A stretch of DNA of 64,000 nucleotides from Candidatus Latescibacterota bacterium (GTDB lineage Bacteria; Latescibacterota; UBA2968): assembly GCA_965116885.1 (NCBI GenBank), contig OZ220741.1:1120001-1184000 (forward strand), in the 5' to 3' direction. Shown here in pieces: positions 39,865 to 41,027 of the stretch. The position numbers were made by a program, and so were the translations under genes. The notes under the pieces were generated by a model, which had not been told where the DNA came from, ran no database searches, and saw only the letters and a list, made by a program, of their open reading frames with translations. Numbering within the stretch: the stretch's first letter is position 1; each line of letters opens with the position of its first letter.

Positions 39865-40191
39865 ATGGCAAGCAGAAATATTATTGTCCTGGTCATCATC
39901 CTCGCGATTGTGCAGGCCCTGGCGCCCGACGCAATCCCTGGGGGACTTGTGCCACTCGCACTGGTGATACTGGGACTACTCTACGCGATAGTAGCGGTCG
40001 ATGCTGAGGACTCGACGGCCTACCTGGTCGTTGCGATTGCGGTCGGCGCTGCTGCAGGTGCGGATGTGTTGAGCAACATCCCAGGGGTAGGCGCTCACCT
40101 GGACGCCATTGTCGATCCGATCGCCACCGCCCTGTATGCCGGTGTCATAGCCATACTCGTGGAGAGGGGAATAAACCGCATCAAGAGTTAA
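39865..40191 (+). CDS. Small 4-TM membrane protein, paralog 1
   Basis: Very hydrophobic, 108 aa; ATTCTGGGAGG RBS; paralogous to the next two genes. Confidence 0.85.
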   Translation: MASRNIIVLVIILAIVQALAPDAIPGGLVPLALVILGLLYAIVAVDAEDSTAYLVVAIAVGAAAGADVLSNIPGVGAHLDAIVDPIATALYAGVIAILVERGINRIKS

Positions 40192-40261
40192 AGATGACTG
40201 GCGGATCAGCGACCTGTAGCCACAGGTCGTGACACACCAACCTATTCTGGGAGGAAGAAAT

Positions 40262-40588
40262 ATGGCAAGCAGGATTATTGTTAGCCTGATCGCTGCTCTG
40301 GCGATTATTCAGGGCCTGACGCCCGACGCGATCCCTGCGGGACTTGTGTCCCTCGCGCTGGTGATTCTGGGTCTGGCCTACGCGGTGGTAGCGGTCGGCG
40401 CTGATGACGAAACAGCCTACCTGATCGTCGCGCTTGCGGTCGGCGCTGCTGCAGGTGCGGATGCGTTGAGCGGCATCCCGCAGCTTGGCGCCCACCTGGA
40501 CGCCATCGTCGATCCAATCAGCACCGCTTTGTACGCCGGCGTCATAACCATACTCGTGAAGACACTAATAAATCACCTCAAGGGTTAA
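40262..40588 (+). CDS. Small 4-TM membrane protein, paralog 2
   Basis: Same RBS; shared LALVILGL, AVGAAAGAD, LDAIVDPI..ALYAGVI. Confidence 0.85.
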   Translation: MASRIIVSLIAALAIIQGLTPDAIPAGLVSLALVILGLAYAVVAVGADDETAYLIVALAVGAAAGADALSGIPQLGAHLDAIVDPISTALYAGVITILVKTLINHLKG

Positions 40589-40658
40589 AGATGACTGGTG
40601 GTTCACCTTGTAGCCCTATACGGCTACATCACAACTAACTTAATTCTGGGAGGATGAA

Positions 40659-41027
40659 ATGGTAGTCAGAATTATTGTTGGCCTGATCGTCGTTCTGGCC
40701 ATTATTCAGGGCCTGGTGGCCGGCGCGATTCCTGAAAATATTGTGTCGATCGCGCTGGTGATTCTGGGCCTGGTGTACGGGGGGATGGCGCTCGACGCTG
40801 AAGATGCGACATCCTTCCTGGTCGTTGCGATTGCGGTCGGTGCTGCTGCAGGTGCGGACGTATTGAGCAACATACAGGTAATAGGCGAGAAACTGGACGC
40901 CATCGTCGATCCGATCACTATCGCTCTGTATGCCGGCGTCATAACCGTATTCGCAAAGAGGGTATTAAATCGCGTCTTGGCGTCTGGTGATGGTGGCGGT
41001 GAAAGTGCTGGCGGCGGTGAAGAATAG
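40659..41027 (+). CDS. Small 4-TM membrane protein, paralog 3, with Gly/acidic tail
   Basis: Same motifs plus a GDGGGESAGGGEE tail. Confidence 0.85.
   Translation: MVVRIIVGLIVVLAIIQGLVAGAIPENIVSIALVILGLVYGGMALDAEDATSFLVVAIAVGAAAGADVLSNIQVIGEKLDAIVDPITIALYAGVITVFAKRVLNRVLASGDGGGESAGGGEE

Follow-up and report, generated by a model that had tools for sequence, protein, structure and literature searches.

A candidate new family of small, predicted four-helix membrane proteins, arrayed in three copies behind a conserved leader in Latescibacterota and present in uncultured bacteria of at least five phyla

Introduction

Two groups of small four-helix membrane proteins are encoded behind leader RNAs: the small multidrug resistance (SMR) transporters, of which paired genes such as YkkC/YkkD stand behind the guanidine-I riboswitch, and the Fluc/CrcB fluoride channels, whose subunits are often encoded as tandem pairs behind a riboswitch and form a pore between protomers. 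SMR subunits have a membrane-embedded Glu conserved in helix 1, and SMR and Fluc proteins form antiparallel, dual-topology dimers with an opposite Lys plus Arg (K+R) bias in paired paralogs. Here we describe an array of three tandem genes for a small membrane protein in a 64,000-nt stretch of a Candidatus Latescibacterota bacterium genome (GCA_965116885.1, contig OZ220741.1, positions 1,120,001 to 1,184,000; hereafter the window, in whose numbering positions are given), first noticed in a preliminary description made from the letters of the window alone. By analogy, leader-controlled small four-helix exporters and channels appear to be the closest described systems, and the array seems to be a member of neither group. 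We consider it very probable that it encodes a real, regulated, stand-alone membrane protein of a new family.

Three paralogous genes under purifying selection

The preliminary description had reported three intact paralogous frames with identical ribosome-binding sites, and we find the frames on the + strand as follows.

39865-40191, + strand: paralog 1 (P0002), 108 aa, seen in the open reading frame (ORF) list, the alignment, the ratio of nonsynonymous to synonymous substitution rates (dN/dS) and the AlphaFold2 model
40262-40588, + strand: paralog 2 (P0003), 108 aa, with the acidic loop GADDET; an orthogroup of its own (starred support of 99)
40659-41027, + strand: paralog 3 (P0001), 122 aa; an orthogroup of its own (starred support of 96-97)
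39854-39859, + strand: Shine-Dalgarno (SD) sequence GGGAGG of copy 1, within the 11-mer ATTCTGGGAGG (repeat family D2)

At the protein level identity to copy 1 is 72% for copy 2 and 60% for copy 3, and at the DNA level a 300-nt unit is repeated three times, with starts 397 and 397 nt apart and with later units 81% and 75% identical to the first. Copy 3 ends in an acidic, Gly-rich tail (SGDGGGESAGGGEE) that is common to its orthologs, and tblastn found no fourth copy or remnant in the 64-kb window. The 11-mer ATTCTGGGAGG recurs ahead of copy 2 (40244-40254) and copy 3 (40643-40653), so that it precedes all three ATGs unchanged, as had been claimed. The sequence said to be shared by the spacers is TTAAAGATGACTGG, which includes the TAA stop and follows copies 1 and 2 only. 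Among the motifs that had been listed as common to the three proteins, DAEDS/ADDET/DAEDA, AVGAAAGAD and LDAIVDPI..ALYAGVI are all present; LALVILGL holds for copies 1 and 2 and not for copy 3, which reads IALVILGL.

Across 11 related loci, ortholog dN/dS spans 0.08-0.44 (copy 1), 0.08-0.46 (copy 2) and 0.32-0.63 (copy 3); between paralogs it is 0.53-0.70 at a dS of 0.36-0.48. Over 115 family genes the entropy by codon position is 0.77/0.53/1.24 bits, with third positions the most variable, which is the pattern of a translated frame. The preliminary description had proposed a check on dN/dS among the paralogs (0.53-0.70); with 0.08-0.63 among orthologs, the three genes are real and under purifying selection. 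Two antisense ORFs, 40706-41074 (- strand, 122 aa) and 40181-40495 (- strand, 104 aa), run across copies 3 and 2; we take them to be composition by-products, because of the conservation of the sense frame and the codon-position pattern. The unusual codon usage that had been ascribed to the array is borne out for CTG (0.55 versus 0.31 in 17 other ORFs) and not for GTG (0.29 versus 0.34) or GCG (0.39 versus 0.38); GTC (0.42 versus 0.21) and GGC (0.47 versus 0.30) are further enriched codons, and the third-position GC content of the array (0.58-0.68) falls inside the range of the same 17 ORFs (0.54-0.68).

A confidently predicted fold outside the named families

The three proteins could not be assigned to a named family from the sequence at first sight, and the searches agree with this. 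Pfam returned noise only for the three proteins (E <= 1) and nothing above cut-off for 36 more distant relatives; NCBIfam gave zero matches for the three; PHROGs gave noise only, the best match being to a tape-measure family (E 0.016); PADLOC matched 0 families for 10 family members at E <= 0.01; a sequence profile search of PDB reached E 1.3 at best; and the ESM Atlas returned unnamed clusters only, with a best named-set score of 0.77. In the literature we found nothing describing the protein family or its leader.

An AlphaFold2 model built on an alignment of 139 sequences spanning the wider superfamily (A7) reached a predicted local distance difference test (pLDDT) score of 94.7 and a predicted template-modeling (pTM) score of 0.84. 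An earlier model, built on 63 close relatives only (A2), had a pLDDT of 61, and its Foldseek result was discarded; the confidence of the later model is due to the alignment depth that the superfamily relatives supplied. The A7 model shows helices at residues 2-19, 28-44, 51-65 and 76-107 and a short one at 68-71, so that the four transmembrane segments of the preliminary description correspond to four main helices, with a short fifth besides. Foldseek with this model gave a best E of 3.0 and a query TM-score of at most 0.45 against PDB, and a best E of 2.3 against BFVD, which leaves a confidently predicted fold without a solved or viral-predicted neighbor.

Over 115 sequences K+R averages 1.0 at the N-terminus and 2.5 at the C-terminus, with none in the three loops, and the mean Asp plus Glu (D+E) count is 1.0, 2.9 and 1.1 in loops 1 to 3 and 2.2 in the first turns of helix 4. 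The positive-inside rule is established knowledge for the orientation of membrane proteins, and K/R at both termini only, together with acidic loops, would place the N- and C-termini inside, with the same insertion for all paralogs. Both membrane faces should then bear acidic surfaces, as far as the sequences tell. The conserved intramembrane Asp and Pro residues that had been proposed are doubtful, since it is the loops and the start of helix 4, not the hydrophobic cores, that hold the acidic residues. Each helix carries a small-xxx-small motif in the alignment (A14xxxG18, G37xxxA41, G61xxxG65 and A89xxxG93). Invariant residues of the subfamily are L9, A14, G37, Y40, G61, G76, L79, D80 and L90; in the superfamily at large near-invariance is limited to A14, G37 and G76, and the other members lack the acidic loops.

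Distant relatives include two natural two-unit tandem fusions, P0206 (236 aa) and P0210 (250 aa), whose sequences hint at two units lying side by side in the same orientation. A search for longer or fused forms found one protein, P0318 (360 aa), in which a family-like stretch is joined to DDE transposase domains (PF13701, PF01609); this is probably an insertion or a gene-calling fusion.

Occurrence in at least five phyla

A word-indexed search recovered 168 proteins among 5.8 billion clusters, the source-named ones among the matches listed all being called 'hypothetical', and an exhaustive profile search of 1.84 billion proteins recovered 95 representative clusters, of which 53 reach E <= 1e-10. 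A scan of one genome per species over 185,579 species, with two peptide patterns taken from the acidic-loop subfamily, gave 170 relatives, from which 80 loci in 74 isolates were kept. By record title these loci are distributed as follows.

Latescibacterota: 35 loci
Pseudomonadota: 16 loci
Marinacidobacterales (Acidobacteriota): 10 loci
Rhodothermales: 7 loci
Unlabeled: 5 loci
Bryobacterales: 4 loci
Gemmatimonadota: 3 loci

The family is thus found in metagenome-assembled genomes (MAGs) of at least five phyla, namely, Latescibacterota, Acidobacteriota, Rhodothermota, Gemmatimonadota and Pseudomonadota. The nearest loci are in Latescibacterota MAGs and are 96-98% identical, and the wider relatives are 'hypothetical' proteins of Woesearchaeota, Micrarchaeia and Maricaulaceae/Algimonas. 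Searched with tblastn, copy 1 (P0002) had no homolog in 72,556 plasmid or 50,697 phage records.

Within +-8 kb, three copies of the gene are found in 11 of the 80 loci, two in another 11 and one in 58. In an unrooted tree of 115 rows and 108 columns, made by a quick method with support from the Shimodaira-Hasegawa-like approximate likelihood ratio test (SH-aLRT) only, the window's three copies form three orthogroups within one Latescibacterota clade (SH-aLRT 88, unstarred, and 99 and 96, both starred), and the two-copy clade around locus L020 derives from a separate duplication. Marinacidobacterales MAGs carry dispersed copies instead: the gene with up to ~100 nt on each side (~260-530 bp shared) is 97-100% identical in nucleotides between sites, of which there are at least four, at least three and at least two per genome in three MAGs. 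Copy number has therefore been raised independently at least three times, as three copies in tandem, as two in tandem and as dispersed near-identical copies. The dispersed copies of L017-L026 and L071 (~7897-8428 in each) lie amid other repeats of 80-190 bp.

Mapped on the tree, the five phylum labels require 9 changes; the lowest possible number is 4, and shuffled labels need 37 on average. Pseudomonadota and Rhodothermota each occupy one side of a branch (support 73 and 94, neither starred), the branches between phyla are short (~0.07-0.35 changes per column) and identity across phyla reaches 69% (L012). The GC content of the family gene tracks the local genome GC in every lineage, which indicates that transfers, if any, are old. 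Our reading of these sequence comparisons is that the gene may have spread horizontally long ago and then descended vertically.

We take PAUC34f to be a synonym of Latescibacterota. The abstract of one study calls PAUC34f sponge-associated (PMC7081726). The locus titles refer to uncultured MAGs, and two loci carry the bin labels SB0662_bin_58 and PNGco_C_bin1; other bins of the SB0662 and PNGco_C label series stand under the sponge-associated Entoporibacteria in one published table (PMC7883664). Ankyrin, leucine-rich repeat (LRR), tetratricopeptide repeat (TPR) and FG-GAP proteins are typical of sponge symbionts. The window encodes TPR plus spermidine-synthase-domain, FG-GAP and LRR proteins (27588-30479, 35275-36447, 44674-45567), and an ankyrin-repeat protein adjoins the family gene in L046 and L047 (6633-7427). 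Taken together, the titles and these neighbors suggest a sponge or coral holobiont niche.

A conserved leader ahead of the first gene

Approximately 100 nt ahead of the first ATG align across Latescibacterota, Rhodothermota, Acidobacteriota, MAGs labeled Gemmatimonadota or unlabeled, and one alphaproteobacterium. In the window this region holds two features.

39764-39864, + strand: promoter-proximal conserved block and 5' leader, covered by a covariance model and a cross-phylum alignment (A4)
39810-39840, + strand: leader hairpin GUUGCGG..CCGUGAC with inner stem CUGCG/CGCA, in both the minimum free energy (MFE) and the centroid structure

The leader comprises a putative -10-like block at 39780-39789 (GGTGCATTCT), a CCTTC at 39798-39802 that is able to pair with the SD, and a core that starts at 39798. 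Its elements follow one another in the order -10-like block (TGCTATACT in L013), core (..CCGTCGGTAACCGTCACGGCTG..), ..GCGCAGGCCGTGACAC.. and SD. The position of the promoter is thus a putative one, read from these letters; a simple consensus scan did not flag it. We built a covariance model, R1, from 28 leader sequences, the window's among them, and searched it over 1.33 Mb. R1 scores 87.9 bits at 39764-39867 of the window (itself one of the 28 building rows) and lies directly ahead of the first family gene in the window and 61 loci (E <= 3.2e-11), 34 of these 62 being outside the model-building set; with additional matches in L077 (E 1e-9) and in a displaced copy in L026, it is found in 63 of the 80 loci. 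A single off-target match (E 0.09) was returned from the 1.33 Mb, and weak partial matches occur ahead of downstream copies (in the window at 40219-40261, E 0.02). The 17 loci without R1 are 15 of the 16 Pseudomonadota loci and two Marinacidobacterales copies with different upstream DNA. In L026 the leader (6387-6502) stands ~1.5 kb upstream of the gene, as though split off by an insertion, and in L021 it has been replaced. Rfam 15, run over 39000-41300, returned five chance-level matches (E 0.32-3.8, far below gathering scores), all of them at 39519-39778 in the upstream hairpin and the AT-rich spacer, so that the leader core at 39798-39864 is uncovered.

In the family the leader hairpin is ~31 nt long and closed by GUCACGG/CCGUGAC, with G-U pairs common. 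For the seven outer pairs of the stem, 89.7% of cells are paired over the 28 sequences and four cells are changed on both sides; 14 of 500 shuffles reached its covariation score, and 38 of 52 distinct leader segments fold as a single hairpin closed at both ends. From a MAFFT alignment of the leaders, RNAalifold recovers no more than a 5-bp stem. An upstream A:B pairing was rejected as a general feature, being 69% paired and absent in Rhodothermota and the L020 clade. Pairing between the SD and the 5' CCUUC/CUCC stretch occurs in some MFE folds, is not in the window's centroid and is not universal, and it may be regarded as a possibility only. Ahead of copies 2 and 3 the window has only a hairpin of unrelated stem, then (G)UGACAC and the SD. 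The comparison of these sequences suggests that the leader is a conserved cis element, probably an RNA structure.

Boundaries and hairpins of the array

The remaining features of the locus are a pair of flanking palindromes, a spacer and two intercistronic hairpins.

39573-39614, no strand: upstream palindromic hairpin T1 (-28.3 kcal/mol, z -9.5), an 88% match to T2
39615-39763, + strand: AT-rich spacer (GC 0.37-0.40) ahead of the promoter-proximal conserved block
40210-40229, + strand: intercistronic hairpin CGACCUGU..ACAGGUCG, directly followed by UGACAC and the next SD
40609-40628, + strand: intercistronic hairpin GUAGCC..GGCUAC, followed by AUCACAAC and the SD; in both MFE and centroid structures
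41056-41097, no strand: downstream palindromic hairpin T2, the array terminator, followed by CUUUCUU

The preliminary description had bounded the unit by an AT-rich upstream region and a terminator, and both are found: GC is 0.37-0.42 over 39150-39899, versus 0.50-0.62 in scan windows wholly inside genes, and the hairpin at 41056-41097 folds at -24.4 kcal/mol (z -6.6), a site that a simple consensus scan left unflagged. That the array is a unit of its own is likewise supported by neighbors that are not conserved across lineages, by a conserved leader of its own and by the bracketing hairpins. The T1/T2 palindrome pattern has two sites in the window, each counted on both strands, where 0 are expected. 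Six related loci have the exact pattern at both ends of the array, and a further six have it at one end; it lies ~255-355 nt ahead of the first ATG in L001, L003, L005, L006, L007, L008 and L037, and 3' of the array in 11 related loci. T1 probably insulates the unit or serves as a bidirectional terminator. No gene remnant was found between the upstream hairpin and the promoter. As for the spacers within the array, the one that holds the hairpin at 40210-40229 (73 nt) folds at -22.3 kcal/mol (z -2.9), and the second, with the hairpin at 40609-40628, is unexceptional as a whole (z -1.1).

After the stop codon (40192-40215 in the window; L031, L013, L049 and others), AGATGAC.GGYGGATSAGCG is seen in 29 of 115 family genes in two phyla, and where the gene is single copy the sequence makes up the 5' arm of a long, GC-rich hairpin that has no U-run. 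We rejected GGYGGATSAGCG as part of the unit because its 92 matches overall in the loci make it not specific; it may be a repeat resembling repetitive extragenic palindromes (REP-like). Farther upstream, a sigma-70-like site at 39308-39335 (TTGATT-16-TATATT) stands ~240 nt ahead of the T1 hairpin with only short ORFs between. The stretch 39300-39614 could be a small transcript or a leftover of an earlier cassette; Rfam gave chance-level matches only on it.

Genomic neighborhood

No conserved neighbor was found among 47 flanking ORFs of 20 loci from different lineages. These ORFs include a histidine kinase, polyphosphate kinase, TonB receptor, pyrroloquinoline quinone (PQQ) dehydrogenase, Lgt and dihydrofolate reductase (DHFR), as well as an ABC permease, ankyrin proteins, transposases and type I restriction subunits. 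We observe that the family gene needs no linked partner gene. A single neighbor recurs: the two Rhodothermales loci scanned, L013 (9032-10702) and L016 (8783-10483), encode a Kef-type cation/proton antiporter (Na_H_Exchanger plus TrkA_N) ~450-700 bp downstream on the same strand, followed in L016 by a carbonic anhydrase. Most simply this is synteny within one clade; it is also the sole ion-related neighbor observed. In the window, a gene divergent from the array (37401-39245, - strand, 614 aa) encodes a dynein-type AAA_5 protein that matches the PADLOC candidate PDC-M26A (E 1.5e-49), and L001 has in the equivalent place a 593-aa ORF without a Pfam match at E <= 1e-6.

Proposed mechanism and its rivals

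The promoter-proximal conserved leader, the coding sequence and the hairpin form a compact unit that travels together, and we propose that its protein would act alone in the inner membrane. The protomers would self-assemble in parallel into a small oligomer, presumably a homo-oligomer where the gene is single copy and possibly a mixed or specialized one in the window's Latescibacterota clade, and the leader hairpin would set the amount of protein made. The function that we prefer is a cation-attracting pore, or a leak or export path, that would run between protomers with Asp/Glu rings at both mouths, since rings of acidic residues on the two faces point to cations. A transport or pore role, argued from analogy, is possible and still doubtful; the explanation as a whole, mechanism included, is put forward tentatively.

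Several observations weigh against this proposal. The wider superfamily lacks conserved acidic residues, so that any ion role may be specific to the subfamily; there is no conserved charged or polar residue within a hydrophobic helix, unlike in most transporters; and the helices are short, with 15-18 residues in three of them. As to the leader, one of the seven outer stem pairs covaries beyond shuffles (in an arm-justified count over 12 positions), the folding energy does not beat that of shuffles (z -0.5), a different fold without the hairpin is seen in one Latescibacterota clade, and the leader is missing from 15 of the 16 Pseudomonadota loci. Given the hairpin-less clade and the leaderless Pseudomonadota, the leader could act at the DNA level or differ between lineages. 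It is also possible that the family is of ancient origin with patchy vertical retention.

A rival reading is an abundant structural or membrane-conditioning protein without transport, which would fill the inner membrane in quantity, alter its stability, curvature, surface charge or divalent-cation binding and be amplified for dosage, as in other multicopy structural genes. In its favor are separate amplifications in three lineages, strong and identical SDs, helices that abound in small residues and have no conserved intramembrane polar residue, and two acidic faces that could bind Ca2+ or Mg2+. We nevertheless consider this role somewhat unlikely: the conserved leader suggests conditional rather than constitutive high expression, the paralogs are separately conserved and distinct (GADDET in copy 2, the acidic tail in copy 3) rather than homogenized by gene conversion, and one copy suffices in most genomes. 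The same copy numbers bear on whether the three paralogs are obligate subunits of one hetero-oligomer, a matter of assembly that is compatible with the other readings. Three old orthogroups, each kept in 11 loci of the clade and each under purifying selection, a higher paralog dN/dS (0.53-0.70), as expected after specialization, and intercistronic hairpins that could set unequal subunit amounts all speak for such an assembly. The family as a whole does not require one, because the gene is single copy in 58 of 80 loci; with two copies in the clade relatives L009 and L011 as well, the ancestral function needs no three subunits, and an obligate hetero-oligomer is unlikely. Specialization or a lineage-specific hetero-oligomer is possible, as the paralogs are old and separately conserved.

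The distribution of the family invites another reading, namely, that unrelated bacteria living together acquired the gene horizontally as immunity or protection against a membrane-active agent of their shared habitat (such as bacteriocins, antimicrobials made by a host, or superinfecting phages). This would suit a small membrane protein that is orphan and self-sufficient and that, though uncommon overall, occurs in several phyla separated by short branches; it would also suit the transposases or restriction genes in some neighborhoods (L012, L017) and the match of the window's upstream gene to the candidate defense family PDC-M26A (E 1.5e-49). The defense-like neighbor is, however, seen in the window only (its L001 counterpart was checked by Pfam at E <= 1e-6, not by PADLOC), no toxin, bacteriocin or phage gene is linked in 20 loci, and the family has neither a PADLOC or PHROGs match nor a homolog in the phage and plasmid collections, all of which makes protection distinctly improbable. 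An accessory or assembly subunit of a housekeeping membrane complex, such as an AtpI-type ATP-synthase factor or a supernumerary respiratory subunit, would explain why no partner gene is linked; the distant relative P0184 is labeled 'ATP synthase protein I' by one source, and 2 of 36 distant relatives have sub-threshold ATPase_gene1 matches (E 0.0097 and 0.05). P0184 itself has no Pfam match at E <= 0.1, and we rejected an AtpI identity taken from the source label, which neither Pfam nor hhalign reproduced. With hhalign probabilities of 0.09% for AtpI and 0.22% for subunit c (single-sequence targets, a weak test), with no atp or respiratory genes beside the gene in the window or in 20 loci, and with a distribution rarer and patchier than that of a housekeeping subunit, this role appears highly improbable.

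Taken further, our preferred proposal of a leader-controlled cation pore would describe a self-contained plug-in: a promoter, a sensing leader of a new structured class, a membrane protein with a new fold and a hairpin, exchanged and repeatedly amplified among unrelated bacteria of one host-associated niche, probably sponge tissue, with a parallel oligomeric cation pore and a leader switched on by a niche-specific signal. In this complete form the idea is quite unlikely. Should our preferred reading hold, it would provide a membrane-protein fold and family that no library names, predicted confidently enough to guide experiments, and a cross-phylum leader outside Rfam. Being tied to one gene family, this leader would be a promising candidate cis-regulatory element of a new kind, and what triggers it would give a clue to the function of the protein. 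A rare, niche-restricted, cross-phylum and amplified gene would then be the signature of an adaptive trait, probably of the sponge holobiont, a setting where little is understood of molecular adaptation since its bacteria are uncultured. The novelty lies in the family and the fold, and the mechanism is not demonstrated as new.

Comparison with known systems

Among proteins of similar size, AtpI/AtpR (ATPase_gene1) are likewise small, hydrophobic and multi-helix. The array proteins differ from them in the hhalign probability against E. coli AtpI (0.09%, a weak test with a single-sequence target), in having no Pfam ATP-synt_I or ATPase_gene1 match above cut-off (best ATPase_gene1 score 16.4 bits versus a cut-off of 26.6), in having no adjacent atp gene in the window or 20 loci, and in being rare and patchy as a family. 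The c-subunit of F/V-type ATPases is likewise distant by the same weak test (0.22% against E. coli AtpE as a single-sequence target), and the acidic residues here lie in loops and at the start of helix 4, with no mid-helix carboxylate. For phage holins and other phage membrane proteins there was no PHROGs, BFVD or phage-record match.

The likeness to SMR pairs lies in four-helix subunits of ~105-110 aa, in tandem paralog genes, in a conserved 5' leader and, as we propose here, in a small self-sufficient oligomer; that to Fluc/CrcB lies in small four-helix subunits, tandem paralogs and a leader, the inter-protomer pore being only proposed for the array. We nevertheless place the family outside both groups, because profile matches, a Glu in helix 1 and antiparallel pairing are all missing. 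The array proteins are without a match to Pfam PF00893 (Multi_Drug_Res; E <= 1, and E <= 0.1 for 36 relatives) and to PF02537, and no CrcB/Fluc entry stands among the Foldseek PDB matches listed. Helix 1 of the three copies is without an acidic residue (mean D+E 0.20 over 115 sequences), all three paralogs share one charge pattern with K+R at both termini, the leader matches no Rfam family, and the acidic surfaces predicted here would repel an anion such as that of Fluc. The family does have superfamily relatives, in Woesearchaeota, Micrarchaeia and Maricaulaceae/Algimonas. These are only 20-35% identical and without the acidic loops (e.g., NITxKETT for DAEDAT), and they share with the array proteins the same length, the same helix pattern and the framework LVxLGL..G, FLVxAxAL and IPxxGxYLxxIL.

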